NCBI GenBank assembly: GCA_044892505.1
Contig: CM097882.1
Span: 425,816,001 to 425,880,000, forward strand
Reading direction: 5' to 3'
Length of the DNA stretch: 64,000 nucleotides
From: Schmidtea nova
Taxonomy: Eukaryota
This document shows positions 1 through 61,905 of the stretch, piece by piece. Position 1 is the first letter of the stretch. Every line of letters starts with the position of its first letter. Made by a program: the position numbers and the translations under genes. The notes under the pieces were generated by a model that worked only from the letters and a program-made list of their open reading frames with translations, made no database searches and was not told where the DNA came from.

Positions 1-1169
1 TAATGTATTCATTTATTTCAGAATTGCGCCTGGGGCGATCTTGATGCCGATATTGGCTTTATAGAATTGCTATATATCATCGAATGAGCCTTTTAAAATA
101 AGTAGGAAATTTGTTTAAAATTCCTTTAATTTAATTAAAATTATCTAACTTGTGAAAATTAAAAAGAACATTTTAATTAAAAAAAAGTGATAACATTTAT
201 TCCAAAACAAAAGATACTTCAAGGGCATTGTAGTGCCTTAGATTATAAATTTCTTTTTTTAATTAATTAACTTATTTAATAATTATCGAATGAGAGTTTA
301 AATGGCATTGTTTTAATATTCACTTTTTTCGACATACTTTTTTTCTCGATATTCAAATAAAATCTGACATGGTACAAGAAAAACTCACTATTTTCAATTC
401 AAAATCAAAAAAGAAGTCAAATGAAATATTTTCTAATCCAAACGTTGTGACGAATCCGAGATCTGTGGAAATACCGAGTGAAAAGAAGCTATCTGAATCG
501 AATACTTATAAGCTATCGAATAGTGTCAGTAACAATAATCAGTCATTGAATACGGGAATTCTTTCATCTTCATCTCAGTTATGTACTCCGCTTGGAATGG
601 CAAATACTCATTTACTCCAATAATTTCAAAACAATCCCCAATATTTCTCGTTCTTAAACATTCTTAATGAGTCTTCGATTTTCAGTGGCTGCAATATGAG
701 TCAGGTTAATGAATTTTCCGATGTCGGACTAATGGAAAAAAAAGCTAATAAAGAAAAAAAAATTAATTAAAGTTAATAAATTCCCAAATTGGAAACCCAG
801 AATGTGAAAGGAACCGAGCAGTATAGGAAGCCCGGGTAGTTAATAAAATGAATAATGTCATTAACAGGAAACTATCTCATGAACAGGACTGGTAAATCAC
901 TCCGGAACTACGGAAATAATCGTCAAAAAGCAATTATTATGTTTTGACAATGCCAGTATAATACGCTGAGCTGTTTGACAATAGAGCACAGCAGGACGAC
1001 ACCAGAAATCAAAATTTTTTTGCCGACGAAGAGTGTAAATCTTGTAACAATTGTAATTTATTGTTTTGAGAAGATAAATGAATTGTTCTGTGTTGAATTT
1101 TGTTGATAAATTTATATAGAAAGAACACGTGGAGTCAGAGAATAACCGACTTGTTAAATAATAACCCAC

Positions 1170-1215
<46 letters not shown>

Positions 1216-1269
1216 TGTGTGTGTATCTTGGTAGACTCATTTTCATCATCAGTTTGTAAATTAAAATTA

Positions 1270-1732
1270 CTGTAAAATCCCGAGTATAAGCTGCAGCTAA
1301 TACGTACATTAAGGCAACATTTCTGAATTGCAGCTAATATGATGTGCAGCTTATACAACTAAAAAACAATTCAAATCGAAGATAAGATTATTTATTTTAA
1401 TTTTTAACATCACACTCCTCAAAACCATCACACTTTTCATTGTCAATAAAAGTGAAATTTTCTAGTAATTGTTTCTTTTGTTTTTGTTCAGAATCGTTAT
1501 CCATTTTAATCAAGGATTCAAAAAGTGCAATAAACAATATAAACGATATAAACGATTAAAACAAAATGGTTTTTGTTTTTTTAATGATAGGTTGCTGATT
1601 TTTAAATCAGGTGTTTTCAACGCAAATGGTGCAGCTAATACGTGCTGCGGTTTATACGACTAAAAAATACATTTTTATAAAAATGTCATCTGCAACTAAT
1701 ACGCGCTGCAGCTTATACTCGGGATTTTACAG
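1270..1732. mobile_element. Non-autonomous pogo-like MITE, 463 bp
   Basis: 28-bp perfect TIR CTGTAAAATCCCGAGTATAAGCTGCAGC, TA on both sides, internal GCAGCTAATA repeats. Confidence 0.85.
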
Positions 1733-2444
1733 TATATTATAATTTAATACATTTATTATAATTTGGGTAATCTAATCTTTAGGGTTTTCATTAATTAATA
1801 ATCTTCAAAACTCTATTGGATAGTTTTCGGATCTGATTTATCAATTTACATTTAATGGGTGAATGCTACATACATTGGAGAGACTGCCTGTCATATAAGT
1901 ATTCAAGCTCTTGAACACTGTCAACCAAAATGATTGATTTATATAATTTAAAAATATTATTATATATTTATATAATTATTGAACATGTTATATGTGAAGT
2001 GTGGTTGTTGAAATCATTTGATATGAAAATAATTTTACAAAAAGCTGAAAATTTTTATGTTTTGAATGTTTTTTAATAATTAGGATGTTAACTTTTGTGA
2101 ATATAGATGGCTTCTGTTGGTGTTTTTTTTTAAATTAAAAGATTAAATTATTTTAAATTGTTGATGAATGTCAAAAAAGTTTTCAAAAATTTTAATTTTC
2201 ATATAAACTTATTCATATTTTATTTTTATCTAAAAATATTAAAATTATTTAATATAAAACTTGCCTAAATAATAAATTAAATAGATTTAGTACTATCTGA
2301 TGATGATATTGAACCTTTCGAAATATATTGTAAAACGGTTGTTTGATTAGAACATTTTAATAAAATAGATCACCGGAAATCGAAAATGAAATTATCAACA
2401 ATTGTAACAAATATTTTTTTGAAGTAAAATAGTTAATATTATAA

Positions 2445-2700
2445 ACTTTTGGTTTCACCTTTGATCTCTTTTCTTTTAATTCAATAATTTTAATTAATTT
2501 TTGAAAGACTAAATCAAATTTTTTTTATAGTTAAGTACACGTTATTTCGGCACAACCTTTATCAAGTGTGTATATCAAGTGTATATGCACACTTGATAAA
2601 TCCTTTGTGGAAATATCGCACACCTAACAATCAAAAAATATTTTTGATCTATAGTCATACAATTGTTAATATGAAACTTATTGATTTAAAAAAATAGTTA
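2445..2700. repeat. Palindromic foldback repeat, copy 1 of a family
   Basis: Imperfect long inverted arms around CAAGTGT..ACACTTG; related to 17045-17215, 17640-17810 and 29322-29560. Confidence 0.7.
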
Positions 2701-5589
2701 ATGATGTGAATTCAATTAAGTTTTTTGTTACAAATAAGTCATTGTATTTCCTTTTTTGTTACTTTTAGATATGTGATCTTCCACTTTTAAACGTATGCGA
2801 AAATTTAACTGCTCCTTTTGTTAAGGTTAAGACAAAAATTTAGTCATGTTCATTGTTTTTACTTTTCTTAATTCATTTTCAAAGTTCAGAAATCCAATTT
2901 CTTTACAGTAGTGAATAGTAATTTAAATTATACCATTGAAAATAATTCAATTAAATAATGACGAATACTTTCTCAATCAAAGTCTGATAGTAGTGACATT
3001 TCTGGATTGTATGAATAAAATGTCAATGAAATTATTTGTAATTTTAGATTTTAAAATTAATTGCAAAACTCAACTGACTTGCGGAACGAGAATAAGTTAT
3101 ATTAGATCGGATTGTTAGTCAAAAACAACCTGAGAAAACTATATAATTAGATGTGATAAAAATAGAAATGAGGTAAAAACAAGTTTTGGAGAATATTTTG
3201 CGTTTCACTGTTACAAAAGCCAATTTTAAAGATTTTAGCCCATCTAAAATTGTCGAAATACACGAAAGATGAATTGGAAATTTTTTTAAATATTTTAAAA
3301 TCAAATAAGAAATTTGTTCTAGTATTATCAGTTAACAGTACATCAAAGGGAACTAAATAGTCCATTAAAAAAACGACAAAATAAGTTAAATTTTGTGGAG
3401 TGATCAAGATCTTTTATAAATCGAAATATTTCAATAAAAAAACATTGCGAGAAAGGCTTACCAATTTATTTAATTAAATTATTATTAATGTTATTATTAA
3501 TATTTCCTGTGTCATATTTGTGTGATTATGAATGTATGATAAATAATTATCCTTCCGTCGTTCCAGTATTCTTGTATTGCAAGTGTATGCAGATTTACTT
3601 AGAAGAGATTGAAGATGTTCGTTTCATTCGTCAAAGAATGTGGATTGATATGCTAAAATTTACGATTGAAAGGCATATAAATTACCTCTAATTGTAATGC
3701 TTATGTTCATGGTGGCAAATAATTTTTAGTCATGAATGTATTAAGTTGTATATTGTCAAATGAATATATCGAGGAAATATATTTTAAAATATTAAGGAAA
3801 AATTTATTGAAATTTAAAAATAATTATATCTTAAAAATGTCTGATATATTAAAAAAGTATATTTTTTACAATAAATTGAGATTTAAAAATTATTATTAAA
3901 TTGTTTAAATTAATCTATTTATTTGGTCAATAGATATGGTGATGTTGAACTGAATCAACGTAAAAGGAGAATCATGTTCTCAAAATGTATTGTGTTTAAT
4001 AAATGTTTGAACATAATTTGTTGTTAATTATTATTATTAATTAATTATTATTATGAAAAATAGTAAAAAAATATTACTAATGACAAAAATTAAAAAAATC
4101 TTACCAATATTCAAGAACCGCGAATTTCGAATGTTGTGTAGTTGACTGGAAAATATATATAATTATTAATTGAAATTTTATAAAGTGGTTTTAAAATGAA
4201 TAATTATTTATTTAACCTTAAACTATTTTAAGAAATCCCCGTTTTTAATTAATTAAATATTTCATTTATAATTTTATCCAAATTTATAAATTTTATCCAT
4301 AAAATTAAAATCCTGCTGTATTTGCACTGTTAATTTTAAATTATTATTTTATGGAAATTATTTATTAAAATACTGGATTAGATAATTTTTATAATTAACT
4401 AAATCATTATTAAATTTTAAATAAAAAATTATATAATAAAAAAAATCGCATGTTTACATGATAAATTTAAAAATAATAACTCACAATATAATATTATTTC
4501 AAATTAAAAATATAATTTTGAAAGAATTCCAAGGTCATCTTTGATTAAGTGAATATTTATAACAATGTTTCAAGTTTGTTAAATCATTAGTTTTTATTTT
4601 TGAAAATAAATAATCCAAATTTTATTTACTTATATGACAAATAACATATATATTCTTATTTTTAGACGTTTTTTAATAATTATGTTGGCACCATAGCGGA
4701 TTTTAGTTTTATCTTAACCAAATAATTGTTGATTTAATCAGTAGTTACCCGCTGTAAGCAACATTTGTGCTGTTACAAATAGTTGAAAATACTCGTAAAA
4801 AGTAAGCTTTGTTTCCAAAAATATATTTGCTCGAGTAATTTCTCTGGGTTCATAAGCTATTGATAGTACATGTGTGCTCGATTTCGGTGTTCGGTTTCTT
4901 TCTTTCGTAATATAATTTAACCCTTGCTTCACTTTACTAATGTTCGTTCGCAAATTTTATTTATTTATTATTTTTATCCGATAAAACTAAAGTATATTTT
5001 AATATGAATGCAAATAATTAATTGCACATGATTTAATCATCGTTTATAGTGTTTTACGATCTTCTCCGCGACTCTTCCTTTCAACATCTATAGGTTTTGA
5101 TTATGATTTCTGTAAGATCATGACAGTAAAGTTGTGATAAATTATAAATTCGGGGGGGGGTATAATTTCTATTTCGGATTTATTAATTTCATTTACAAAG
5201 TAAGTGCAAGGCTTATCAAGTGGTTTTCAAGTAGGAAAGAGTAAAAGAATGTTATTATCTTACTATGAATTGGTTTCATCATACCGAAAGTATCGATTGT
5301 ATTATTTATTTACCTTGTCAGTTTAGCAGGATCTGAAATTTTAGTTCCACGTCATGGTGATGGTTTTATTTAACAATTTCAAGGGTAAAGCATTTAAACG
5401 TATTTGTTTAGCTAATTCGTCTTCTGTCCTGAAAATATTGTGGTAGATGGTTATGTCATTACAATTCTCACAAATAATTGCATAGGACAGTATGAAAACG
5501 ATAATAGGTATACCGGGAGTTCACATGGGGTTCATGGTCCTTAATAATCCCACAAGATGACATAAATTTTAAACATTCATTTATTTAGA

Positions 5590-6076
5590 CGTGAATTTGA
5601 TCGATATTGAAGACACGATGGTGATCCAGTTGTGTCGGGATAAAAGCCGGATGCTGATCGCCCAAAGGCAACGATTCGAAACTCAAAGAAGATGAATAGA
5701 TGGTCCCCTAAAAGCCCTGCCACTCGAAATCTCGATGCAGATGAACCAACGGGTGTGGCAATGGCGTCACGAACTACGCTCCGCCTGTCCGATTACAATA
5801 TGAATCCATGCAAGTCACGACATCTAGTACCACGGAGGTCTCAATTGCCTGATCCTGACAGATAAAGGATATCGTAACGAATATGCGGAATGGTTCGTGC
5901 TGATCAAGGATGAATTCGACCGTCCCAGGTCTTTATTATATTGGGGACACATCCCGCCATCGGTATTTAAAAGGCTAAGATTTCTTCTCATCAACCCTGC
6001 CCGACATCTCAGGAAAATTCAGCAGAGGGCCTTAAAGAATTGGAAGATATTCAAATCGGAGATAAGAGCTATCTGA
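5590..6076 (+). pseudogene. Unrecognised accessory coding region of LTR element A
   Basis: Frame 5696-6073 reads ...LKALP..WRHEL..PITI*IHASHDI*YHGG..WFVLIKDEFDRPRSLLY..RH, homologous to 47156-47680 (-). Confidence 0.65.
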
Positions 6077-6569
6077 AAGGATCTCCACATTCACCACATA
6101 TTTGCGTATAGGAAAGAATTTTGTCTAAATTAAGGTGTCTATTATCGTTAAATAAACATATTTTTGTGTGTTATAATGTTGTCCTGGTTTGGCTATTTAT
6201 TATTATTAATTACCATAACGATAACAATTTTATTTTTAACAATTTCTATTTTCCTCTCTTAAGATAATTTTTACATCATGGTGACTCCAAAGGTTATCGT
6301 CAACTCCAAAATTGATCATCGAACTCTAAAGAAGCCAATCGAACACCTAAAGAGCCAAATCTGTCAATTATTCGCCCAAAACACTGAGTTCGACACAGCT
6401 GGTTCGCTCCTTTGAAAATGAAGGAACAAGTGATGAAAACCGACAATACGAAGCTAGCAGCGGTCAAAGTGCAAATGGAAATGGAGTGGAATTAATCTAG
6501 ACGAATGGACCGTAAAGTGAAAAGAAGCGTAAGTCCTTCCATCGGCGGCAAGGAGCCCAAGAGAGGGAA

Positions 6570-6768
6570 TATAGTGAGGAGTAATTTTAGCAATAGAGCT
6601 CACCTGCTCACTAGATTCTCGCCACCGTGTACAGTACCAGCGTAGTTAGTTAGGCAATAACTATGGGTACACGAGTGTGATAGATTTATATTTTTGTTGG
6701 GCTATTGGTTATCATTATCCCTAGAAAGCGTTAATAAATTTTATAACAACACCTACACCAACCCAACA
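6570..6768 (+). mobile_element. 3' LTR of element A (Gypsy-like), ~200 bp
   Basis: Purine tract AAGAGAGGGAA immediately upstream, TATAGTG start (decayed TG), AATAAA, ends CCAACA; shares motifs with the split LTR at 43441/37040. Confidence 0.6.
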
Positions 6769-6790
6769 ATTTTATTTATTTTTCTAAATA

Positions 6791-7752
6791 CAGAATAAAC
6801 CAATAAGTTTTGTCCGGTGAAACATGTATAAATTTCAAAACATCAAAAATGTCAATCATCTGTGTCAGAGAGATGTTCAAAATATGCACCACTATGAAAG
6901 ACACATCGGTTCCATCGATCAGGCAGTTTCCTGATTCCATCGGCTAAGAAGCTGTGTGGTTTACTGTCCAACCAAGCGTCCAGAACCACTTGAATTTCAT
7001 CAACTCAGTTGAAATCTCTTCCACGAATCGCAGATATCAAAGGGGAAAACAAATAAAAATCGGATTGGAGAGGTCTGGGAGTAAGGGGGATGTGGCAGAA
7101 CAGTAAAACCAATGTCAGTAAGTTTTTGCACAGATTTGGCTGCCGTATGGGGTCATGCATTGTCGTTTGGATATTGAATTTGATGAAACCCACCACCAAG
7201 AAGACGGCGTCACTTTTGTTGCATTGCCGTCACCAGACGGGACAGCTGTTCGCAGTAAACATCGGCAGTGATTGTAGCACCCTGCGGCAGTCATTGATAT
7301 CAAGAGAGTGTCTCCCACATCGCTCTTTGTCTTCAACATCAAAGTTTCCTTCCTTGAAGTTTACAACCCAGCGTCGACAATGGGCTCATTTGTTGTGTCC
7401 TTCCCCAGTGTCAAAATCATTTCATTTGCAATCTGGGAAGGCACTAATCCACGTTTCCAATTGAAGTAGATTAACTTGCGGATATCCTCTCGTGCGAAAT
7501 TCATTTCAAATCGACGTATTCTAATGAAAACAAAAAGTATTTTAGTCAAACAAGAAATTTATTAAAAGTGCTTAATTCATGTAAAACATATCAAAGTTAA
7601 TAGCAATGTTAAAATTTATTAATAAGTGATTTTTTTTAATTTTACAATTCTACAACATATATGGCATAGACACACAGTTGCAGACCTATACACTCATTAC
7701 AGCATTGGAAAGCTGAGTATCAGCACCGGACAAAACTTATTGGTTTATCCTG
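6791..7752 (-). mobile_element. Internally deleted mariner element, 962 bp
   Basis: 29-bp TIR CAG(A/G)ATAAACCAATAAGTTTTGTCCGGTG, TA flanks; transposase remnants (IRKLIYFNWKRG; SDFYLF; GIRKLPDRWNRCV). Confidence 0.88.
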
Positions 7753-7921
7753 TATTTCTAGTTAATTTGCTAAAACGATTTAAGTATACATCGTATTGTG
7801 TATAAGGTGTTAATGCTTTCTTATTGATTGGTTAAAATAATCAAATTTAAATTAATTCTTTTTTTATTTTAATCTCTGTGATTTTAACAATATTTCAATA
7901 GGAATTTTTTCTAAAGATTTT

Positions 7922-10229: not shown

Positions 10230-34906
<24,677 letters not shown>

Positions 34907-40100: not shown

Positions 40101-43100
40101 GAAAAACCTATTTAGACAATAATGAGTTTAATTCAGATCAAATCAATACTTGTTTCACTATTCGTTTCATTTCGTGAGCATTATTCTAGCTTTGAGCATT
40201 ATTTCGAACAATTTTCTCTTCATCATTAGCATCCAATTTTCTTGCGTTTTCTCATAAGATAATCGTCGTTGAGAGCGTGAAGGCGAAGGTGAGTACGAGT
40301 CGATTTTTTAATCAGTAATATTTCCTATTTTAGATTTCAAGACATGAGTTAGAAAATTTTTATGTTGTATTACGAAATTGCTTATGTAGATAATAAAAAT
40401 ATGCTACTCTATTATAATAAAAATCATTAGTATAACAAATCCTTGCTCTTAGCCATACCACGATTCCCCAGTTGGGATGACGTGATTATGGATGTATGAG
40501 CCTCACCTTAAAGTGGAAATATGGGCTGGCCGATTACCAATCAGACAACGATCCACCCAGGCTACTAACAGATCCGCACAACGCAATGCAGGACGGATCG
40601 TCAGAAGATATGGGAGAAAAAATTTTTTTTATTTATTTTCATAATTTTATTTAGTTTACCAATTTTAATGAGATTTTTCCTGAATTGTTTTGGGAATTTG
40701 TGGCTCGTGATAATGATAATAACAAAAAAAACTAAGCTACAAATCATTAAAATACTTTAATAATATAAAATTTACCATAATTAATAAAATAACAAATAAC
40801 ATATTAAATAAAGGAGAGGAATGGGATGATCGTCAGGCATGATGGACGACCATTCCAATCCCCAATGAGAATAACCAAAATCAAACAAATCCTTACGTTT
40901 GTCCAATAAACCTCTGCTGCGATTTCTTTCCAACGAAATATTATTTTCTCAGAAATTTGGAACGATTTTTCCACAAATTTTCTGGAAGTCAACTTTTGAT
41001 ATTAACTTTTCTTCTTGGAATCAAATTCTCAAATTGAATTTCACAAAAAATATTTTTCGCAATTTCTCCGCAAATTAACCAGAAATATTCTTCACAAATT
41101 CTCTTCAATTAAGTTGTCGTCTGGAGTAAGATTAGAAATTTTTAAATCGGATTTTTTCACGAAATCTCAAATTTTTCTACAAATTCTGTTGGAATAAATA
41201 AAAAAAAATTTTCGATAAAATTCTCACAAATTCTGAATTCTGCCATTTTGATGGCGGTATATATACCATCAATTTTTCGCTATCTTCAGTAGTGCAATAA
41301 AACAAATTGTTCTAGAATTTTCTCTTAATTTTTTCTAAATTAATTCTAATGATTTTCCGAAAATTAATTCCATATTTTTGTATAATAATTTTTTATAAAC
41401 CATAAATAATTTATTTTAATTCAAAATTTTTATATTTGAATCGAAATTTGTTCGTTTTGATTTAATTTATGATATTCCGATCCATATTAATTCTTTCTAT
41501 TGTTAAATGTGAAATTCTGTGACAAAATCACAATTTTCTTCTAAAATTTTTATTAATTTTTCTGTACTAAAGGTTTATGAAAAAATTCTGTTCTTTATAG
41601 GCATTTTCAATGGGTTTTCCGCCTATTCTAACTTCCAAACGTTCTGCTTTTAATTTTTCTCGAGATTTCAGTGAAAAGACTTACAAATTCGCAGTTAGCG
41701 CGTACTCTACCGGTTGATGTGTTTTGATTCCACTTCACCTTTTGGTGTTTTCCACTTAATTGTTGGATTTTTAATGGAAGCTAAGGTTAAAAATGAAATC
41801 TTGCGCGTTCTCTACCTATGGGGTTATCGCTTTATTAAAACAAATTGCGTTTTTGCCCAACAGTAGGTATAAATTTATATAATAATAATTTAACGATTAA
41901 TAGTGACAAATATTATGATCTTTCGTTTTTATCATGGGTGATAATGAAAAACAAGAAAATAAAGCAACCAGAAAAAGCATTTCACTGGAAGCTAAAATGA
42001 AAGTGATTAGAAGATTAGATTCTGGTGAACGTCAATCTCAAATTAGTGCTGCATTGAATTTGGGAACTTCAACAATAAGGACAATTTTTAAGAATAAAGA
42101 AAAATTACTGTCATCGACAACTGCAACTTTGTCAAGCTCTGCAACTAGAATTATCCGATCTAGAAATAACAGTATAGAGGAAATGGAAAAACAACTGTCT
42201 ATATGGATTGACGATGAAATTGAATGCAATATGCCATAAAGCCAATCTATCATAATGGAAAAAGCTAGAAGAAATTAAAAAACTTGAATAAAGAGTACTA
42301 CTATTATTTGATAATGCTCCAAGCCACCCAAGAAATTTATCAGACTTAACAACATGCATTCCAGTCGAAGTGATTTTCTTGCCATCTAACACAACTGCAT
42401 TAATCCAACCAATAGACCAAGGCGTTATATCCAATTTTAAAGTTTATTATTTGAAGCGATGTTTAAGTAGATGTTTGAAAAAACAGACGGAGAAGAGAAG
42501 CAATCAATAAGAGGATTTTGGAAAAACTACAATATCATGAATGCTGTAGCAAATATAAACCTTTCTTGGAATGAAATAACAGAAAGATCTTTGAAAGGAG
42601 TATGGAAGAACATTTGGTAAGAGCAAAGACATTGGACACTCTGTCGATATGAATGAAATAGTGTAAGAAATAGTTGAATTAGCGAAACAAACCGGTTTAG
42701 ATGAGGTAAATGTGGAAGACGTCGAAGGAATAGTTCAAGAAACAGCAGCTAGTTTTTCTAATGATGAGCTCAAGGAATTAACTGCACAAGAAGAAAACAA
42801 AAATATTGATAGTAGTGATTTCGAAGAAGATTAAAAAGAACTCTCAATGGCGTTTGTAAAAATTAGTTTGACCACTATAACTGAAATTATGGACCAATTT
42901 GTTGAAAATGATCCAAATTTTGACAAGAGTTCAAAAGCAAGACAGGGTGTTATAGATGCTTTATCCACTTATCAACAACTTCTAACAGAACGCAAAAGGA
43001 AAACGCAAACTATATTAGATGCCTTCTTGACAAAAACGCAAAAAGTTGGAAACACAGAATAGACTTAATGATCTGACTGACTAATAATTTAATTGTTTTT

Positions 43101-44825: not shown

Positions 44826-47155
44826 CTCTAGAATATGACGTTTCAATTTTCTCATCATCTCCTGGGTGGATCAATGATTTACTGCTATGGTGACATTAGA
44901 TTCATTGCTACTCACTGTAATCATTGAATTTGACAACTCTCTAAATATTGAATTATTCAATATTTTAATATTACATCCCTAGTTATTTGTCTCGATCGGC
45001 TATCACGCGTGTTTGCATGTAAATTTGACTACAGAGCTATTTTTCATTATTCCCTCCTTAGCTATAGAAAATCTACTCTGCAACATTTTTATATCTCTAT
45101 CACCGATTTTAGGGTAATTACTTTATCCATTTAGATATATTAGTATTTAATCTGTTAAGTTACAAACGTTACTTGGTTATCGCTTTCTATACACCTCACT
45201 CACCGTCATTCTTATAATGAACCCCTTGTTGCCTTAATTGGGAAGTTTAAGTTCTTATTTTTTTATTAATTTGTATATCGTTTACGATTAATACACAAAA
45301 AAACAACAAATTTCACTGAACACGAAAATTAATATTTAAATAAACAGATAATTTGGAGATTCGGAACGCTGATCCTTGATTAATTCGGCTCGGAGGGGCT
45401 GAAGGGAGAGTCAGTTGGTTGGTCTAATGGAGCGGGGCTAAATACGAATAGGCCTATTTTTAAGAACTCTTCTGAAGGGATTGTTTAGTAATATTTGATA
45501 ATTGAGCGTCCTGAAATCTCACTTGGAGATTCAACTGAATTCTTGGAGCAGTCCTCTGAGTAACAATATTTTAAATCGATTGGCAACTCTTGGCCAAATG
45601 ATTTCACCAGGGCTGTCCTCGAATAGGCTGAATTGAGACATTTCCCCTGTTTGTGAAAAGGTTTGTTGGTGTTCCGCCAGGATCTCCCTTGCAAAATCAG
45701 TGGGTATTTGTTTCAGTAGCATCGCCACTACAAGGTGATTATCATATAGGTTCTGATTTACGATTGAATCTCGGGTAAAACATTGTCTCCATCCCATCGC
45801 TCCTCCGAGGTTGATATAATTGTAACTGAACATGGCTTCAATTTTCTATTAATAATGAATGTTATAAAGTTAATTATTTATTATAAAAACTTCTTTTATT
45901 TTAAAACAGGAGTAGTGAATTTTACTCTGTCCTTTATCCAACTAAGCTTACCCTGGATTTATGTTTCTTACACCAATAATTTGTCCATTTGAATTTTATA
46001 GATTTAATTTTCCACTCATTATAATAGATATGTTAATAGTTAATAAATTTATTCATATTAGGGACGAATTCTGAAATTTAATTAGAAATCTCATTTTACT
46101 AAATGCCTCCCACAAGAAATTATTCAAGATAATTACTCAATTTACATTTTTAGCTAAACGGCGTTTCCCCAATTACTGCTGTTGACAATTCTCTTTATAC
46201 TCCCCTTCATTACGAAAATGCACTAATGGCTTAAAGTTTGTTCACTGTCACCCGGTTTCCTGCCTAGAAATTTTAACTCTAGAGTCTTACGTCGTAATCT
46301 CAGGAATCGATTCTGGTGGCATTAAGTGGTTTTAGAGTGACTTCGCTACCCTTCGCTACCCATCACTTCCTGTTGTTGCTCGACACTTATGTTTACCTAT
46401 TGGATTTATCTACAGCCGCGCCAGTTATTATGCTGTCGGGTAATCGCTCATGATGCCGCCTAACTAGTTTGGTTTTCACCTACTCACGATCGCTACACAA
46501 TTAATTTATAGGATTCGTGAACTGAGTTAGAAATATAATTTACACTGGAGTTCTATTTCTTTCTCTGTCTGTCACTCAATAGAAATTTGGAGTTACTTGG
46601 AATATTCTCTCGTCATAGTGTGTTAGTCGCCATTCGTTTTACGGATGGTTTTGTTGGAATTTTTTTTTATTCCTTTATTCATCTAAAAATAAAAATATTC
46701 ATATACATTATCCTACTAATCGCCCCTTTAAAAATTAGGTCTACATGGGGTCTATACTATCATGATCGCTCTTTTCCTGGGCTTAACGGGTGAACTTAAC
46801 AGACTTTCCTAATGAATTACTGGAGAAAATCGGAATACTACCCTAGTGTAGTAATCAAACTAACCGTGCTCTACGTCGGCATCCCTACAATCTGAAGTTG
46901 CTACCCCATAAACTATTATTGATTTTAAATTTCACCCATTCACTTTAAATACTAAAACAATTATCAATTTTAACAAACAATTCCATAGCAACAATCATCG
47001 ACTATTTCATTAACACCAAACAAATTCATAAAACGAAAGTTTGCTAACAAAGATTAAATATTCAGAAACTAAAACAAATCACATTGTCAGATTGATTCAC
47101 CTGGATCAGCCCGGACAGTGCTCGATGTACTTCAGCTGTAGTTGTAGATCAGCTC

Positions 47156-47770
47156 TTACGAGAACTTTGCTCCTTCCTTCATAATCTCATCAGTGCCGTA
47201 GATGGCTAGGTTGGGTCTCCGGCATAAATGTGCTTTATAGAGAAAAGTTTCTTGGATTCGAATCTGTGACGCCCAATCCGACATTCCTTGCCATTCCTCG
47301 TGAAATTCAAATGGGAGATTAGAATATCCTCGAACGTCTCCAGTCTTGATGTGTCGCGGCTGGTCTAGCATAATGAAGCTGAGAGCCTTCAAGTTCTGGA
47401 TATTAATATCACTAAAATATAATAACCATCTTGGCACATTTAATTCGTCCCGTAATACACAGAACCATTGGTTGACATCTGGGTCTTGAGGTTCCATCCC
47501 GGTGGAATGCCATTGAGACCCGCCTTTCCACTATACTTCCTCATTAGCCTTCTTTCATATCCCGAAGGGAGCTGGTTGAAGAAGTTCCTGTCGCCACCTT
47601 CGCATGTGGTGATCGAGTTTATTACTGAAGCCTTGCGGAATATCTTTAAGGAGCCAGACGGCCGGTCCGGCGACCTTTCAATTTCGATACTATCGGATCT
47701 TTGTCGAGTTGGGTTGTTGTTTTCGATGTTCCATAATGTTCCTCAAATTCTGACTGCTACACTTTAACCT
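47156..47770 (-). pseudogene. Unrecognised accessory coding region of LTR element B
   Basis: LKDIP..WRQEL..PFGI*KKANEEV*WKGG..WFCVLRDELNVPRWLLY..RH; homologous to 5696-6073. Confidence 0.65.
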
Positions 47771-47873
47771 AATTAGAAAAACATAATAAAAACCAAATAA
47801 AAACATGCAGAATTTAAATTGAGAATCAACAAAAAACGCACTGGCACAAATTCGAAAAGCAATACAATTCAAG

Positions 47874-48620
47874 ATGGAATTCGAACAAAAGATGAAAAAT
47901 GCAGCACCAAAATATTTTCTTTGCAATAAAATTTTGTTATCAATGATTATTTGTTCAGTCACGATAATTGATGTCAGAAACTACAATGTTATGCCTTCAC
48001 AGACAATTTCAATAGGGAATAGTTTACCCTTAATAATGGCACAATTCACAGTTTTGTTGCCTCTTGGATCCATTTCATATTCTACATCCCATCAACAGTT
48101 AATAACTCAACCTAGCCTAACGAATTTTCAATATATTCACGATCCTATTCTCAGTTCAGTAGCTCACAAACATAATATACTCAATCAGATTCATCCACAG
48201 CCGCAACAAGTCGTTTACAGCAGCATTATTCACAAAACTGGAGTGTCCTTAACTTAACATCATACCATTCAACCACAATTTACTCTAATTTCATCAGACA
48301 ATCAGAATCATTCGCAATTATTATCAGCTCAATGTCCCGTTGGCAGTAATAACACTTCAGCCCTTATCATAAACCTAGTTGCTGTGGCACATCCCAATCA
48401 TAGTCAGAATCAACAATACACAATTAGTCGACAACCTCTCGTAGGAATGTCGATATTCTCTGCTGCTTCTCCGTGCTCATTGCTATCAGCCTCTCCGACA
48501 ACTGCCAAAATTATGCACTCATTACAACAACAACATCAAATTTTTCAACCGAACGACAATAGGTTCATCAATCCAAATGATATGGCAATAAGTATCATTT
48601 ATTATATTTCTATAAATAAA
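47874..48620 (+). pseudogene. Gln/Ser/Pro/His-rich reading frame (~250 codons) with one internal TAA
   Basis: ORF-track entries 47874 and 48384 share one frame and are joined by 42 open codons after TAA 48255-48257; product not recognised. Confidence 0.45.
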
Positions 48621-49149
48621 ANNNNNNNNNNNNNNNNNNNNNNNNNNNNNNNNNNNNNNNNNNNNNNNNNNNNNNNNNNNNNNNNNNNNNNNNNNNNNNN
48701 NNNNNNNNNNNNNNNNNNNNNNNNNNNNNNNNNNNNNNNNNNNNNNNNNNNTTCATAAATATTATATTACTTAAAATTAACCTTTCTGAATTCTCTATCC
48801 CGCCTCTCTTCCACCCTTTAACTACAAACAGCGTCCATAATCCTAACCAAAATCAGACGCGCGATAATGATTTTTCCTCAAAACCACACCGATACTTCCA
48901 GCTCAAATCCTCACGTGTTTCGATAACAGAATTTGGGAAATCACCGATACCTCCGATCTACACACCGATATTGCCACATCGCTTCGCACTGACAAGACCT
49001 CATTCCACGTGTCGTGCAATGGTTCTTTAGTCTCCTCTTCTACCCACCTGCAGTCTAATTATATCTTGGACATCAACTGTCGCATCCTAGGAGGCGGTAG
49101 AATCACAACAGAGCCATCTTCCTCATCCTGATTCCGCTCCACACTGTTT

Positions 49150-50500
49150 TTTCTGAACCCGGGCAGTACACCTTCTTCGTGGTTTCGGATCTTTGAAGCG
49201 TGTACGTCTTCCTCTCCAAAGTCACGAGCAAATTACCTCCTCGACAGTTTACCTGCCGAATTGTTGGCTGAACTAGTACCAAAAATTGCTGATGCTCTTG
49301 ACGTAGAAAATCAAAACGAAAGCCTAAAAAATCTAATTACGACCAAATACATTTCTTCACAGACCCAAGCTCTGAAAAAAACAATTTGCGCCACAGATTT
49401 ACTCAGACCAACAACCTAGTCTCTTTTGGGAGCGATAGTTCGTTCAAACGATGCGGCATTACTTGGTCTTTCTAAAAACGCACCTGTATTGACCCACCAA
49501 TTCCTTTCTGCACTCCACTACCATCAACAAACTTCGCTGGAATTGGTTGACTCTGAAAATCCATATCACCTTGCGAAGATCGCTGACCGCATTCACGCAC
49601 TGCAACCACATAAACACCACGCAGATATTTACGCAGAACCTCCACTAACCCCCACCGTTAACGCAGCGCATACACCTCACCACCCTTTCCCTCGAACTGT
49701 TGAAAGATATCCCTACGACACTTCTCCATCATATGATACACATCATCCAAATCCCGTACCAACAACACGCTCATAAAACATGCAATCCAATAACTGCGCC
49801 ACACTAATCTGCTTTTATCATTACAGATTTAGACATCATGTACAAAAATGCTGCATCGATTGTCTGCATCAAAGTCCAACCATTCCAGTTCGTATTCATC
49901 ATCATCTCTTCAAGAAGGATGCCAGATCGTGTCTTGACAGATGCACATGGCGCACAAGCGACAACCTTCTACCAAAAAACTAGTCAAGTCATCAGATATT
50001 CCTGGACTCTCCAATGACTCCCCGCCAATGAATTCCCTTTTTCACATCCAACCATGTCCTACACACACACGATTAACTCCGTCAGCTAGCACCATCTCAG
50101 AAACAACCGCTACTCTCTCAACAGTACTATTTTCTCACACAACACCACCACCAATACCAATACAAGCACCAACACCAGAACAAGAACTAACCAGCTCACC
50201 TCGCACAACACTTGCAACAACACCAACAAAACATCACCCATCACACCGCAGACAGCACCATCCGTATCACTACCAGCTGCAGCATCCACAATACCATCAA
50301 AAACACCACTAACAATACCACAATCACCGCTAACCTTTTCCGACGACGAAACCCGCACAGACTACACACACATTCTACCACAGCCGCCACAAACCGCATC
50401 CCCGTCATCGCTCTCACCAGCACTTATCGTCATCATGGACACACACTCGTCTTATTCAATAATACCTACCAACTTCATCGCATACACATCTTGCTCATCT
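49150..50500 (+). pseudogene. Degraded Gypsy gag (and possible protease start)
   Basis: PSSWFRIFEA; CFYHYRF..HVQKCC zinc-knuckle variant; IMDTHSSYSIIP resembles a DTG protease motif; C/A-rich composition distinct from the pol downstream. Confidence 0.55.
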
Positions 50501-50989
50501 TCCGCCCTAGCCGCGCAAAGTACACACAAACTGCTCTCCGGTACAAGAAAAATTGAGTTTCGCCTTCCAAGTTTTTTTACTCCGGCCCTTGAATACCGTT
50601 TGGTCTTTTCTCATACGCTCCGCGTACTTCGGCGAGGGCTATTGTAGTGCTTCCGTCATTTATATATCTTTATANNNNNNNNNNNNNNNNNNNNNNNNNN
50701 NNNNNNNNNNNNNNNNNNNNNNNNNNNNNNNNNNNNNNNNNNNNNNNNNNNNNNNNNNNNNNNNNNNNNNNNNNNNNNNNNNNNNNNNNNNNNNNNNNNN
50801 NNNNAAAGCACTGGCACAATTTAGAATTTACAAAAAAGTAAGAAGAAAATTCGAAAAGCAATGCAATTAAAGATGGAGTTCGAACAACAGAAGAAAAACG
50901 CAGCACCAATATATTTTCTTTCAAATAAAATTTTGTTGTTATCGATGATTATTTGTTCAGTCTCGATTAAATAATAAAAATAAATTTAT

Positions 50990-53791
50990 TAATAAAATAT
51001 TGAAAATCTAAAGATGCAATCCGATATGTGAAATACATTTTGAATTTTCAGATATTTTTATGTGTAATAAATGGGATATAGGCAAAACAGATATTTTAAA
51101 GCACAGAATAGAAACTAATTCCAATCCAATACCAATTAAGCCACGGTGACAACCAATGCACTATGAGGAAAAACTAGAAGAAATTGTTAAAAACCTAGAA
51201 GGAAATAAAATTATAGAGAAATGCGAATCACATTGGAATTCACCAATAGTATGTGTGCTAAAAAAGGAACTTCTGAAATTCGAATATGTTTGGATTTTAG
51301 TATTTTAAATTCATATACAGTTAGACCAGATTTTCCAATTCCCAATGTTGATAAAATGCTAGATTCTTTGTACGGGGCCTGTTATGAATTCGAATATAAG
51401 ATGTTCAATAATTTATTTAAATCACAACTTTGATTCTTTCCTAATTTGAATTTCTACTTTTTATTTTCTTCTGGTTATTTAAACAAAAATAATTTATAAT
51501 ATATTTCTGCAATATCATTTAATTATATAATAATAAAACACTACAGGGCCAAATATTTTTCGTCGATCGACTTCGGAAATGCTTATTATAAAGTTGAATT
51601 GGATGAAGAGAGTAAATTGAAAACAGCATTTTCTACAAGACAGAGCCAATTCTGCTTTAATAGGATGCCTTTTCAAATAGCTGCCGCACCATCAACGTTT
51701 CAAAAATTTATGACATTAATAATTGAAGATATGATGTGGAATGAAGCATTAGTCTATTTAGATGGCAAATTGATCTTTTCGAAAACTATTAAAGAACAAA
51801 AAGAAAGAATAAATAAGCTTTTCATTAGAATTAGGAAATCTGGACCAAAAATTAACCCTGGAAATGCAAGTTCCTAGTATCTGAATTAAAGTGTCTTAGA
51901 CATATAATTAATGAAAAGGTATTAAAACAGATGAGTCTAAGATTGAAACAATTAAAATTTTAAAGCAGTCTAATTGTGTGAAACATCTTAGGAGCATTTT
52001 AGGATTGTGTAATTACTATAGGAAATTTATTCAAAATTACTCAAAAATAGCTAGGCTATTGGAATATTTAATTGGAGGTAAAAGCAAAAGTATTATTTGG
52101 ACATCACAATGTGTAAAAGTTTTGGACGAGTTAAAACATAGTTTGATCAGTGCACCATTACTATGTCATTCGGATTTTAATAAAGCGTCCATTTTAGACA
52201 CCGATGCTATTATTATTAATAGTTTTGATAGTATTGGTGCTGCTTTATTGCAAAGAGGTGACGATGATGAAGAAAAAATAATTGCATATGGTTCAAAAAG
52301 TACGAATAAACATTAAGTTGGGTATTGTATAACAAGAAAGGAATTATTATCTGTTTTCCATTTTACACAGCATTTTAAACATTATCTGTACGGAAAGAAA
52401 ATTATTTTAAGAACTGATCATAAGGCAATCACATTTGTGTTAACTACAAAAAAGCCAATTACCGCTCAGTTTCAAAATTGGATAAATTTTTTAAGTAGTA
52501 TGGACATGAAATTAGAATATCGTATAGGTGAGAAACACAATAATGCGGGTGCACTATCACGACTGAATATTGGAAATTGCACACAATTTCAGATGAATTA
52601 TATTGATCCTAAAGCAAAAAGATTAAAGCTATAATTTTAGCAATGTCGATAGAAGATCAAACATTTAAATGGCAAAGTAATTCATAAGAAATAATGGAAA
52701 TAGAAGAAAACATTCAGAACGGCAAAACTGAAGATTATTATGTGGACAATGGAATTATTATAACTCATAATAATAAAATATATGTTCCTTCAAATATGAA
52801 AAATAATTTTATACTAGACATCCATGAAGAATTGTGTCAGGCAGGAATCAACAAAACGACAAGTTACATGAAGAATTATTATAATTTCAAAGAAATGTAC
52901 AAAAGTATTAAGAGAATTATTACAACTTGTGAAATTTGCCAGAAACGTAAAACATTCACTAGTAAAACAAAAGAAATTATTGAAAAACTTATTGCGCATG
53001 AACCATTTGAAAAAATAAATATTGATTTTTGTGGCCCCAATAAATTGACACCATCAGGCAAAAAATATGTGATGGCTATAATAGATCAGTTTAGTAAATA
53101 TATAGTATTAAAAGCTGTAAGAACACAAGAAGAGAAGACATTTATTGATAATGTGGAAAGTTCGTTTATATTGAAGTTTGGACCGCCAAAGGAAATTTAT
53201 GTTGATTAAGGAAAATGTTTTGAATCCCAAGCTTTTAAAAATATTTCAGTAAAGTATCACTTGAAGATTGTTTATTCAAGTCATTATCATCATCAATCTA
53301 ATGGACAAATTGAAAGGCAATTTAGAACGCTAAGAGACTGGATTTCCTGCTGTTTGGAAGAGAAACAATTTAAGACATGAGAAGAAGAATTGCCTCATAT
53401 AGAATTTTCAATGAATTCAACAATGCAGTCAAGTATAAAAGTTAGTCCTGTTGAAGTAATTTACGGAAGAAAATTTTGCAAAGAGCGTTTTACCAATGAT
53501 CCAGAAATTAATGGTAAAGAACGAAAGAAACATGAAATAGCATTGAATATTAAATCATTTGACCGTATAAATAATTATAATCAGGAAAATCGAATACATA
53601 GATTTTTCGGAGTCGGTGAATTGGTACTCATCAAGGAAGATCTCAGAAACAAGCAAGATAACACGTATTGCGGATCTTTTGAAATAATGGAAAAATATAA
53701 TAAAAATAGTTATTTATTAAAAAATGTTAATAATAAATGTATTACTAGAAATGTGGAATGGCTAAAGTCATTTAAAACGAGGGGACTGTGA
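50990..53791 (+). pseudogene. Degraded Gypsy pol (RT, RNase H, integrase)
   Basis: KHRIET, WNSP, RICLDF, KTAFST..FNRMPF, VYLDG (YLDD lost), LGLCNYYRKF, LDTDA..IGA.L, RTDHKA, CEICQ, IDFCGP, IDQFSK, SNGQIER; many stops and frameshifts. Confidence 0.93.
51380..51545 (+). mobile_element. Solo LTR, 166 bp, inserted in the Gypsy RT
   Basis: TG...CA ends, perfect 5-bp TSD GGGCC, AATAAA near the 3' end; removal restores DSLYGA|KYFSSID. Confidence 0.88.
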
Positions 53792-54030
53792 TGTAATTAT
53801 AATGGGATATTTGATTTCCCTAACCCCTATTATATATTGTGTAATGCCTGCATGTGTGATTGATTATGCTTGACTTTCTGGGTCCTCAGATGACATCATT
53901 GCTTATTATTTCCCAAGAAGCTATTGCTGATTGTGCTGGTGTCGGCACACCGGGTACTATAAATAGTACCAAGATTTCTTAAATAAAGTTTTAGAACTTC
54001 AAAAGTTATTCTTATTCTTTACAACCCACA
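53787..54030 (+). mobile_element. 3' LTR of the Gypsy pol element, 244 bp
   Basis: Polypurine tract GAGGGGA at the pol end, TGTG...CACA termini, TATAAA and AATAAA inside. Confidence 0.8.
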
Positions 54031-54552: not shown

Positions 54553-55285
54553 TGTATATTAAATTTTTCCTGACAGAATATTTTTGCTTTCTTTTAAATA
54601 CGCATACTATGATATTTAAAAAACAAAGAAAACAAAAATTAAATAAATTTGTTTTATGTTTAAACAGGTTTAATCAATAGAATACCCAAAATATAAAATT
54701 TCTATGTATTGTTTTTTTGGTATCGATTTTTTTTAATGTTTTAAGAGAGAGAAATGAAATAGAAATCTGAAATAAACACAAAAAATTATAAAACGTATTT
54801 TTATCTTGCAGAGTAAAAATGAAATCCAATTGGTTTTCGTATTGCTTACCACTACTAAAACGTGTTTCAAAGAAATTTGCAGTGACACTCATAATTCAAA
54901 AATCGTTTGGAAAAAAACGTATCAAAAATATAACCATCTCTTTTATCCTTTTCATGTAATATTTTTTCTGTTTTGCTACATTTTATTTTCTAAAATGAGT
55001 AGTCCATTTGTATGTTCGTTTTAAACTATAAGAAAAGAAGACATTTATTTTTTATGGACCTACTGTTTGCACTCTTCTAACACGAAAATAAAAAAAGAAA
55101 CTTTTTCGGAGTGATAAGTTTACAATTACAATTTTGAGGAAATTAATGAGTAAAATAATAATTCTGTATTTTTAAATTACTAATCCATTAATCATTAAAA
55201 TATCACGGTATGTATTTATAATTTGGTATTAAATTTTGTTGAATATTTACTTGATTAAAATTTTTGTTGTTAGGCCTATAAAACA

Positions 55286-57265
55286 ATGGAAAGCAAAAAT
55301 TTATCTAACTACGAAAACGAAACCAAAAAGACATTATGGGACTTCTTTTTGCGTAAAGGAAACGATGCCGCGAAATGCAAGAATTGTAATAAAACTTTAA
55401 AATCCGTAGGAGGTTCTACCAGTGGACTACACTATCATCTTAGAAGTCAGCATCAAATTAATTTACTAAAGCGAGATAAACCAGACCCTTCTACGCAATT
55501 CTCTCAAAATAAAAGCGACTGCGCTGTGAGCACTTCAAAGGGTGGTATTATGAATTATTTCAAAAACGTAGTTGATGATACTCTTCCTGCAGTGATTTCT
55601 AGGATGGTAGCAAGGGATGGGTTACCTTTTGAAAAGTTTTGTACCTCTTGTGATTTGAGAAAATTATTAATTGCAAAAGGATATGATGTCCCAAAATCAG
55701 CAAATTCAATCAGAAAAATTGTAATGGATTACGGAGAAAAAATTAGGAATGAAGTACGTGGAGAAATTTCAAATCATAGCAAAAATGGAAGCAAGTTTAG
55801 CCTCACGTTCGATGAATGGACATCCATCAAAAACCGTCGTTACATGAATGTAAATGTCCATGTTGAAAAACTGTTTTGGAATTTAGGCTTAACGCGGTTG
55901 CAAGGATTGATGCCTGCAGAAAAATGTGTAGAAACTCTGGAAAAAAAACTTCAGGAATTTGGACTAAATTTTAATAGCGTCGTAGCGATAACTACAGATG
56001 GGGCAGCAGTAATGAAGAAGGTTGGTGTAGTTTTAAATATACATCATCAGCTATGTTATGCGCATGGAATCCAGCTCGCGGTGGTTAAAGTTTTATACAA
56101 AAGAAAAAGTGAAATAATTGAATTAGCAGAAGAATCAAGTAGTTCCATAGAAGATACCGAAGATTATTATGATGAAGATGATGATCTTAATGAAAATTTG
56201 ATTATAGTAGTAACGGATGATCCAATAGTTCAATGTGATATCTCCCATGAAGAATTAATTCCTATTATAAACAAAATACGAAGAGTAGTGAAAATATTTC
56301 GAAAGTCACCTACTAAAAATGATGACACTCTTCAAAAGCATGTCATCAATGAATTTGGATATGAAATTTCTTTAATATTGGATAGTAAAACCCGATGGAA
56401 CAGCTTATTAGCTATGCTGGAACGTTTCTTCAAATTAAAATCCGCTGTGAGAAAAAGTTTAATAGACTTAAATGTTGATATCAATTTTTCAGAAAATGAA
56501 TTAAACTTGGTTAATGAAATGATAAATGCATTGGAACCAATAAAATTGGCAGTTGAATCTCTAGGCTCCTCAGATTTTACATTATTAAGTGCTGATGTAA
56601 CACTCAAATTTATGCTTGATGAATTATATGAACAGAATACTGTTCTAAGCAGAGAACTTCAACGTGAATTAATCATTCGAATCGAAGAACGTAGAACAAA
56701 TTACTCAGATGTGCTTCAGTTCTTACAAAATCCTTTAGAATATGAAATATCAAAGGATAACACAAATTATGGATTATTTAATAAACTAAATAAAAGCGCA
56801 ATAGTCAAAACTATTGTTTCAATTATTGAGCGCTTGGTAATAAATATTGATATAAATAATGAAACAGAAACTGAATCACCTGAAGATGAGACAATAAATT
56901 TGTCCGTAACCGTACCACAACAGTTGACAATGAAAGAACGGTTAAAAATCGCCATTCAAAGGAAAAATGAAGTTAATTTTGACGCTTTGGCTACTTCACC
57001 AATTAAAAACAAAAAGAAAATAGAGAATATCATCAAAAAGGAAATGAATTCTATTGCGGAGGAAAAACGCCTTGGAACATATTTGGAATTAGCACAAAAA
57101 TATTTGCATACAATAAAACCAACGAGTGTGGAGTCAGAAAGAGCCTTTTCTGCTGCAGGAAAATTGTGTACGAAGATTAGATCAAATCTTAATGATCAAA
57201 CAATAGATACAATTTGTATTTTACGTGGATATTTTGGTAAGCAGAAACATTTAGTTGGTACTTGA
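55286..57265 (+). CDS. hAT transposase with BED zinc finger, 659 aa
   Basis: BED (W.FF..AKCKNC..STSGLHYHLRSQH), FDEWTS, TTDGAAVM, CYAH, TRWNS, PTSVESERAFS: the DDE triad and CxxH are all present. Confidence 0.95.
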   Translation: MESKNLSNYENETKKTLWDFFLRKGNDAAKCKNCNKTLKSVGGSTSGLHYHLRSQHQINLLKRDKPDPSTQFSQNKSDCAVSTSKGGIMNYFKNVVDDTLPAVISRMVARDGLPFEKFCTSCDLRKLLIAKGYDVPKSANSIRKIVMDYGEKIRNEVRGEISNHSKNGSKFSLTFDEWTSIKNRRYMNVNVHVEKLFWNLGLTRLQGLMPAEKCVETLEKKLQEFGLNFNSVVAITTDGAAVMKKVGVVLNIHHQLCYAHGIQLAVVKVLYKRKSEIIELAEESSSSIEDTEDYYDEDDDLNENLIIVVTDDPIVQCDISHEELIPIINKIRRVVKIFRKSPTKNDDTLQKHVINEFGYEISLILDSKTRWNSLLAMLERFFKLKSAVRKSLIDLNVDINFSENELNLVNEMINALEPIKLAVESLGSSDFTLLSADVTLKFMLDELYEQNTVLSRELQRELIIRIEERRTNYSDVLQFLQNPLEYEISKDNTNYGLFNKLNKSAIVKTIVSIIERLVINIDINNETETESPEDETINLSVTVPQQLTMKERLKIAIQRKNEVNFDALATSPIKNKKKIENIIKKEMNSIAEEKRLGTYLELAQKYLHTIKPTSVESERAFSAAGKLCTKIRSNLNDQTIDTICILRGYFGKQKHLVGT

Positions 57266-57524
57266 TCATATCATGTGTAAAAATATTTTTTACTCTCTTT
57301 GTTTAATGAATTGTGAATGTAATATTTTTTATTTAATAATAATATGTAATAACAATGAATTCTAAAACATTTAAATTTTCTATTATTTCTATCATTTTAC
57401 CGGTAAATTACCGGTAAACCGATAAAGTGATGAATTTTTTACCGTTTACCGGTAAATGAAAATTACGGTAAATTTGCAGTCCCTACACTCAAACATTATT
57501 TAAAAAGACCTTATTTACATTATT

Positions 57525-58340
57525 TATTATTATAAGAATTATCGTTTGGAGTCCGAAAATCAATTAATTAATCGTGAGAAAAAAAACTATTCTGTGTTGA
57601 TTCGTAACCACTGATACGAACCGAACAATTATATGGTAAATTTTCTTATAATAATTTGATCGATTTATCATCGATTTTTAGATTATGAAAATTTCAAATT
57701 TACATTTCTATTTGAACATTTCTGGTATGGTAAGCATTTCCTCATTAATTATAAATTTTAGATTTCAGATATTTTAGATTCTCCGATGATTCCAGAGTTG
57801 GTAGAAGTGAGCCCTCCATGACTCATCTTTGCAGATGATAACATCCATCCAAAAATGATGTGAATTTTTCCAAGTCACATGATCCGATCAAGTATTGATA
57901 AGTTTACTTTTTTTACTTACTATTTATTATTGTTTATTTATTATTTACACACAACACATATTATTATTATAAGAATTATCGTTTGAAGTCCGATAACCAA
58001 TTAATCAATTGTGAGAAAAAAAACTATTCTGTGTTGATTCGTAACCACTGATACGAACCGAACAATTATATGGTAAATTTTCTTATAATAATTTGATCGA
58101 TTTATCATCGATTTTTAGATTATGAAAATTTCAAATTTACATTTCTATTTGAACATTTCTGGTATGGTAAGCATTTCCTCATTAATTATAAATTTTAGAT
58201 TTCAGATATTTTAGATTCTCCGATGATTCCAGAGTTGGTAGAAGTAAGCCCTCCATGACTCATCTTTGCAGATGATAACATCCATCCAAAAATGATATTA
58301 ATTTTTCCAAGTCACATGATCCGATCAAGAATTGATAAGT
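57525..58340. repeat. Tandem duplication, period 437 bp, near-identical copies
   Basis: ATCGTTTG at 57541 and 57978; ~380 bp shared with few substitutions. Confidence 0.92.
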
Positions 58341-59653: not shown

Positions 59654-59990
59654 TGTAACCCGCCCCTAAAATTTAGGGGTTAGCTGTTTAAATGTTGCGT
59701 AATTTATACAGTTTAAGGAAAATTGCTTGTGTCAGAGCACTTACTTCCCCCTACTCACCCGTATTAATATTTCCTTGAAGAGTGTAATGTAGGAATTTAG
59801 AAGAGAACGGTTGAGCCCTACCGAGTCACCTGTAAAGTGTGTCGGGACAATTGGGGTGCGTGTTGTTTGTTATTTGTGAAGGCGTATGTGATCTTACTAC
59901 CAACTCTAACTCAAACTAATTAAAGCTTTTATTTTTCTAAAAATTATAAACAACAAAATTAATGCTAACGCTACTCACGGGTGGATAACA
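59654..59990. mobile_element. Possible solo LTR, ~337 bp
   Basis: TGTAACCCGCCC...GGGTGGATAACA imperfect inverted ends; no TSD found. Confidence 0.4.
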
Positions 59991-60005
59991 TATAACAAAA
60001 TTTGT

Positions 60006-61539: not shown

Positions 61540-61905
61540 ACACTAAAAAGTAAAAAAATTCAACTTATACTAAATTTGAGTACAAGTAAATGTATTTTGA
61601 AAAATGACCTAAGTACAGTATTTCCAAAAGAATTGGAAATTTTGCTTGGTTTTAAAAACATAAAGTATATCATCCTGGTGAACATATAGGTGAAAGATAA
61701 GTTAATATCAATAATGTAATCACTATTAATATTGACTGTGATCTTGTAGAAGGGGTTTATATAAATGCTGTTGCTAGTAATGTACTTTATTTATTCTCAT
61801 CTAATAGAGCACCTGTCAGTTTTAAAATAATTGAAGGAAGATGGCCGCCTATTTATTTTTTATGTTCAAGAGATTAGAGATATTAAAAACAGTTGATCAA
61901 AAAGG
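61540..61905 (+). pseudogene. Polinton/Maverick (adintovirus-like) minor capsid (penton) fragment
   Basis: LLGF..(fs)HPGEHIGE.*VNINNVITINIDCDLVEGVYINAVASNVLYLF..FKIIE..IY(fs)..VDQKG fits the penton pattern LLGF..V.I..I.CD...GSY.NG....LY.F...GYKI.E..Y.P..DQ.G. Confidence 0.68.

Follow-up and report, generated by a model that had tools for sequence, protein, structure and literature searches.

Two diverged orphan reading frames share a TGA and a TAG at the same two codons, probably through independent decay

Two short reading frames in the window (the whole stretch of 64,000 nucleotides analysed here) align without gaps over 100 codons, and within this core each holds exactly two stops, a TGA and a TAG, at the same places and of the same type (Table 1). 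The alignment shows that these frames, copies A and B, are homologous copies of an orphan protein-coding frame without a known relative; the feature is real and odd. With modest confidence, we attribute the shared stops to a coincidence of independent decay in dead repeat copies. Inheritance of recoded stops is the main rival and is distinctly less probable, and three further explanations fare worse.

Table 1. Position and strand of the two copies, their stops and the frames used for comparison.
Feature	Position	Strand	Detail	Basis
Copy A, conserved 100-codon core of the orphan ORF	5708..6007	+		alignment with B
Copy A TGA	5801..5803	+	core codon 32, next base A	alignment
Copy A TAG	5825..5827	+	core codon 40, next base T	alignment
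Copy A private TGA	6074..6076	+	one alignment position off a copy B Trp	frame reading and alignment
Weak upstream match to B	5617..5646	+	−1 frame, TAA inside in A	P 0.035-0.094
Copy B, conserved core	47351..47650	-		alignment with A
Copy B TGA	47555..47557	-	core codon 32, next base A	alignment and contigs
Copy B TAG	47531..47533	-	core codon 40, next base T	alignment and contigs
Weak upstream match to A	47676..47705	-	−1 frame, encloses the B frame-0 stops 47692 and 47680	P 0.035-0.094
ORF C, second orphan ORF	45380..45833	-	adjoins B, same strand as B	ORF reading and contigs
Dead pogo transposase (control)	22818..24122	-	four internal stops: TAG, TAG, TGA, TAG

The initial annotation had described this pattern from the letters alone, and its particulars held on recounting. 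The two cores are identical at 28 of 98 sense positions, 17 of these 28 residues use different codons in A and B, both stops stand in the context I*xxAxxxx*xxGG, and copy A has no in-frame Met after its TAG. Further in-frame stops do lie upstream (TGA at 5693 in A; TAG at 47692 and TGA at 47680 in B), and the CTAAT reported ahead of the TAG in copy B is present there and absent in copy A. Within the window, the tblastn match between the two copies has E 2e-12, and a search for a third copy found none. Beyond the core, copy A retains weaker similarity to B until about 6124 and its frame ends at a TAA at 6131, while the frame of copy B is open from 47677 to the TAA at 47158 (173 codons) apart from the two shared stops. 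Within these 173 codons copy B carries no private stop, neither core contains a frameshift, and all eight internal stops between the first ATG and the closing TAA, in A and B together, are TGA or TAG. The flanks of the two copies show no likeness beyond that of shuffled sequence; a pairing of AT-rich flanks (score 53 against a maximum of 50 in 20 shuffles) was dismissed as an effect of composition. The stops of copy B are not an assembly error, because a contig without a single difference crosses both in four of four public runs; this check covers copy B only, in at most three samples of one study, and one run may be the source of the window itself.

The window is AT-rich (GC 22-38% across 2-kb bins) and holds a tau-tubulin kinase (TTBK) gene on its minus strand amid many transposon relics. 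The two copies flank the TTBK gene and face each other, A about 4 kb beyond the last exon found and B some 12 kb ahead of the first. Among the 120 matches listed, the TTBK product reaches 73-78% to vertebrate proteins and 95% to one other protein, the only match above 78%; the host group seems thinly sampled in the database. The host is an animal, and it uses the standard code, as had been said of its TTBK gene: internal stops are absent from three exons of that gene and from a 662-codon hAT frame of the window. A search of the window for tRNA genes, suppressor tRNAs included, found none. The hAT transposase (55274-57265, +) is open over 663 codons, has a BED finger and a dimerisation domain, is free of stops and is possibly young. 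Other elements include a pair of oppositely oriented arrays of a 16-nt unit (12966-13538, about 90% complementary, MITE- or foldback-like), a 183-nt inverted pair at 59986-60731, a Tc1-like DDE frame of 203 codons (61835-62446, +) and a broken CENP-B-type (Tigger-like) transposase (41919-43000, +). Two direct duplications, at 28015-28888 and 57524-58260 (spacing 574 and 437 nt, 98-100% identical), are either tandem copies of recent origin or doublings introduced by the assembly. A frameshifted relic with 34-nt inverted ends (6786-7757, 97%), directly downstream of copy A, is presumably mariner-like, a family name that we give from its motifs.

Nucleotide identity between A and B by codon position is 50, 64 and 24 per 100, where chance gives 25, and third positions are therefore saturated. 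The copies diverged under protein-level selection until this saturation was reached. As had been noted, conserved residues lie before, between and after the stops: identities at first, second and third codon positions number 17, 20 and 7 of 31 codons before the TGA, 4, 5 and 1 of 7 between the stops, and 27, 37 and 14 of 60 after the TAG. Between the stops, 9 of the 14 first and second positions are identical (P 0.002), and the BLOSUM score of this segment has a P of 0.023. By these measures the coding frame is real and conserved across both stops, and because it is, the anomaly stands.

Conservation is already present at core codon 1 (codons 1-15, P 0.0006), ahead of any ATG that could be used after the upstream stops. 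Further upstream, a weak match between the copies runs in the −1 frame, with a P of 0.035 when frames of the same offset are compared and 0.094 when any of nine frame pairs is allowed; it could reflect a shared frame change or an upstream exon, and may be chance. If real, it would place the two upstream stops of copy B outside the coding frame and would require a frame change shared by both copies. T-rich AG sites lie just ahead of this match in both copies (near 5588 and 47769).

Searches for the protein itself were negative. No candidate of 15 was upheld in a word search with copy B, its stops read as X, and an HMM of A and B gave no match at E<=0.001 among 1.84 billion representatives. None of the 152, 143, 108 and 11 pattern matches in viral, metagenome and prokaryote contigs was confirmed, no homologue was found in phages, and searches of Pfam and PHROGs assigned no family. 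A sequence match in the PDB proved to be a designed repeat protein, aligned in six stretches of 2.5 bits, and was rejected as spurious. Folds predicted from two-sequence alignments reached a pLDDT of 33 and were unusable, which makes a viral fold search with these models (nothing at E<=0.001) meaningless.

The decay of other frames in the window provides a measure of how stops arise here. The dead pogo transposase, full-length and 77-88% identical to database proteins among the matches listed, has four stops in 435 codons, none of them TAA, and no frameshift. In the 40 of 120 listed homologues that were aligned, three of its stop columns hold Trp, Gln and Trp (40/40 each), and the fourth is variable, with Gln in the closest listed homologue. 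Two of its 11 conserved Trp columns are now stops, one TGA and one TAG, and 17 of 37 residue changes correspond to G>A or C>T. Counted per available transition route, stops number 0.16 in A and 0.10 in B (each from its first ATG), 0.10 in pogo, 0.14 in a gag relic and 0.10 in an integrase relic. In density and type, the stops of A and B resemble those of other dead ORFs in the window. The suggestion that Trp codons had decayed independently to stops in the two copies is for this reason far likelier than an estimate from random positions implies, because stops here stem from Trp and Gln codons by transitions (four of four in pogo). Private lesions comprise the TGA at 6074 in A and an indel and a TAA (45487) in ORF C, with none in the 173 codons of B; at the rate of decay of ORF C, 1.8-3.6 stops would be expected in copy B, and two are observed. 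A mutational hotspot that could raise the odds of a match was sought among 18 changes, which showed no context bias.

On the favoured reading, independent decay, A and B would be dead members of a low-copy dispersed repeat. Codons 32 and 40 would have been stop-prone sense codons (Trp, or Arg/Gln) in the active ancestors of both. After insertion each copy would have died and then accumulated G>A or C>T transitions at about 5-10% of its stop-prone sites, and probably one and the same pair of conserved codons was turned into stops in A and, independently, in B. Both stops would then be without function. The earlier proposal that they may be functional retains the conserved frame across them in its favour and is a possible, though less probable, reading.

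The surroundings of copy B bear on its status as a repeat. Contigs mapped at >=80% on 45300-48600 bring additional diverged sequence over B, most of it on the core: in run X1 the bins over B sum to depths of 66-155, with 155 and 109 within 47409-47630, compared with 53 for the exact contig; such summed depth is no copy number. Further diverged copies of the copy B region are thus present in the genome, and none of the variant rows listed (40 of 307) falls within B. Several sequences related to the adjoining ORF C at 80-87% exist in the genome; Pfam gave no match to it and an atlas one weak match at 0.75. Against a second copy seen in contigs it shows 84 letter differences and 12 gap letters over 637 nt, with an 8-nt indel and the private TAA, and the 29 listed differences, assumed to come from one copy, comprise 6 synonymous and 15 non-synonymous codon changes. 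ORF C is therefore dead and has drifted near neutrality. It was rejected as a second frame closed only by TAA: its four TGA/TAG sit in a frame reached through the indel, and the tested part of the second copy reads open with the standard code, the proper frame being free of TGA and TAG over about 150 codons. The patchy extra depth leads us to infer that B and ORF C are parts of one dead unit; no single contig of the second copy spans both.

A very high-copy repeat occupies 47800-48600 (summed X1 depth 7,600-33,000 against 53 for single sequence), a part of which (47848-47965) recurs at 50847-50967 with 88% identity, and it lies beside two relics, one gag-like with DUF7041 (48868-49773, +) and the other a broken gypsy pol (about 51000-53960, +). 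The gypsy-like gag/pol relics near B run in the opposite orientation, and the mariner-like relic lies beside A; no link of these to either copy was seen, nor was a transposase, LTR or TIR tied to A or B. Two X1 contigs join 46705-46710 to 47816-47817 and bypass B, with a short side of only 20-24 AT-rich letters; B may be inserted in a subset of the repeats, or the joins may be chance.

How surprising the shared stops are depends on the model of decay. If stops could fall anywhere, two positions would be shared once in 4950 by chance, on position alone. In a transitions-only model, which limits stops to routes from Trp, Gln and Arg codons, the probability that a pair of copies carrying two stops apiece agrees on both, in position and in type, is ~1.2e-3, or about one in 800 pairs, and at 10% per route at least two stops are shared in 0.3-0.4% of runs. 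Under a general mutation model the figure for the A/B pair is about 1e-6, a rough value from 1-7 matches in 12,000 runs. The likelihood ratio of dead copies of a recoding family over independent decay is 370-4800 in favour of inherited stops, and we judge the prior for a family with two programmed stops in a short domain to be 1e-4 to 1e-3. Combined, the two put decay marginally in front of the sum of the inherited readings. This prior is the weakest step of the argument, and a higher one would reverse the order. A scan of many windows will meet such stop coincidences. Points against decay are the improbability of the match, the lack of a private stop in the 173 codons of B and of a frameshift in either core, the failure to find a hotspot, the missing contig link between B and ORF C, the missing transposase, LTR or TIR, and the possible upstream frame change, which it leaves unexplained.

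That the stops were inherited from a common ancestor and recoded—by double readthrough, by A-to-I editing, or with one stop recoded and the other a coincidence—is a minority possibility that we nevertheless take seriously. In its most unusual form, no likelier in itself, an orphan animal gene or mobile-element family would have a conserved domain interrupted by a TGA and a TAG eight codons apart; these would be kept through synonymous saturation and bypassed together, by double readthrough or clustered A-to-I editing, without known cis-signals, and a +1 frame change common to both copies might precede them. Translation would normally end in a short N-terminal product, and the full protein would be made rarely and under regulation. 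In the editing version, one A>G per stop turns both into Trp codons. Apart from the likelihood ratio, such a history would account for the identical stop type at both sites despite third-position saturation, for the otherwise open frame of copy B and for the coding signature on all sides of the stops, although the signal after them is also expected from recent nonsense changes. There is precedent: the parts of PMC5100048 drawn on here describe conserved stop identity and double readthrough in insects, and those of PMC11156358 describe stop-correcting editing in fungi. The specific proposal of readthrough or recoding at these two stops nevertheless gained no cis-signal from context, folds, Rfam or a long-range partner. 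The next bases are A and T, against the C favoured in insect readthrough in the same part of PMC5100048. None of eight local folds beats its shuffles (z −0.17 to 1.07), Rfam scans of the two regions (5300-6800 and 45300-47850) found no SECIS and a single chance match apiece (E 1.4 and 1.5), and the best long-range partners in the window (−28.8 and −33.3 kcal/mol) are not clearly better than controls (−32.5 and −27.4 kcal/mol). Neither the local folds nor the window-wide partner search yielded a duplex over the stop sites that could direct editing, and the fungal kind, as presented in the part of PMC11156358 used here, acts on UAG and disfavours a G before the edited A, as in TGA. The frame ahead of the first stop measures only 35-40 codons; because it is so short and conservation begins before any usable ATG, recoding would need a third bypass.

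It is improbable, in our assessment, that the TGA is a true stop and that the region beyond it joins the product through a splice at the TAG or through some other frame change, in a family of split architecture. The TAG is formally a phase 0 acceptor, copy B has its CTAAT upstream, and the weak −1-frame match suggests a frame change shared within the family. The use of the TAG as a splice acceptor is disfavoured by the codon-like conservation between the stops, by the poor T content before the AG (0.18 and 0.14, against 0.32 and a T-run in the one host acceptor compared) and by the absence of a GT donor at a shared position in codons 1-32. AGs upstream of both ORFs reach a T content of 0.55-0.68, and the frames that start at the ATG overlapping the TGA are unalike, with 21 codons in A and 4 in B.

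A donor with a variant code (a symbiont or its virus), in which TGA and TAG are sense and TAA is the sole stop, is slightly less probable still. It would explain why all internal stops are TGA or TAG and perhaps why GC3 in A and B (0.51 and 0.47) exceeds that of TTBK exons (0.25-0.42). The missing TAA and frameshifts are, however, no argument for such a code, because the plainly dead pogo shows both, and this origin, raised in the initial annotation, found no support. The proper frame of ORF C is free of TGA and TAG, and none of the NCBI code tables combines sense TGA and TAG with TAA as sole stop or much improves the alignment (118-134 vs 128). No donor appeared among the representatives, the viral, metagenome and prokaryote contigs or the phages, and an element of this kind could presumably not be expressed, and so spread, in a standard-code host.

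Least probable of all is an antisense gene in the frame that shares third positions, where both stops would be shadows of conserved His and Tyr: this frame has 27/92 identities, outscores the sense frame around the stops and yields at least two shared shadow stops in 25% of shuffles, but its overall BLOSUM is 62 against 128, its score is reproduced by synonymous shuffling of the sense frame (P 0.07) whereas the reverse fails (P 0.0008), identical stop sets arise in only 0.06% and two or fewer stops per copy in 1.6% of 5000 shuffles, and the split-box test (16/24 vs 10/19) speaks against it. On these sequence comparisons the sense frame stands.

If independent decay is correct, distant copies would share stops about once per thousand pairs in an AT-rich genome where stops derive from Trp and Gln codons, and we would caution that the lack of TAA then gives no hint of a variant code. 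Should the stops be inherited, the copies would represent an animal case of double recoding within a domain, with no known signal, and the 27-base cassette would be simple to assay.

Several known systems resemble parts of this pattern. Selenoproteins share the in-frame TGA at a common position, but A and B have no SECIS match or Pfam family and the TAG would be left over. Context-dependent nuclear codes (NCBI tables 27, 28 and 31) likewise read TGA and TAG as sense; in these, TAA is also sense and the organisms are protists, whereas the TTBK and hAT frames of the host use the standard code. The consulted section of PMC11687900 describes reassignment of UAG while UAA and UGA remain stops. In Fusarium, A-to-I editing corrects premature UAG during sexual development, according to the portion of PMC11156358 cited; A and B are similar in having an in-frame stop in a conserved coding sequence that one A>G turns into Trp, and they differ in that the host is an animal and the Fusarium case is described for UAG. 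For planarian ADAR2 edits, a T is enriched before the edited A in the part of PMC8797187 used, and the words 'stop codon' do not occur in the main text of that source, a comparison that bears on A and B only if the host is a planarian. A survey of titles and abstract openings found no TGA..TAG pair inside a domain, which is no proof of absence. A functional parallel is provided by Anopheles and Drosophila, for which the cited portion of PMC5100048 gives 35 double-readthrough candidates with conserved stop identity, places abundant readthrough after the split from the centipede and treats recent nonsense changes as the main false signal. A and B resemble these genes in the kept stop codon, the use of TGA and TAG and the coding beyond the stop; they differ in that insect readthrough genes, in that portion, have long first ORFs, C-terminal extensions and preferably a TGA followed by C, whereas the stops of A and B lie in the first third of a short frame. 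The dead pogo/Tigger ORF of the same window is alike in its several TAG and TGA, its lack of TAA and frameshift and its density of stops per route; A and B stand apart from it in having no known family and in stops that coincide between copies only 28% identical.
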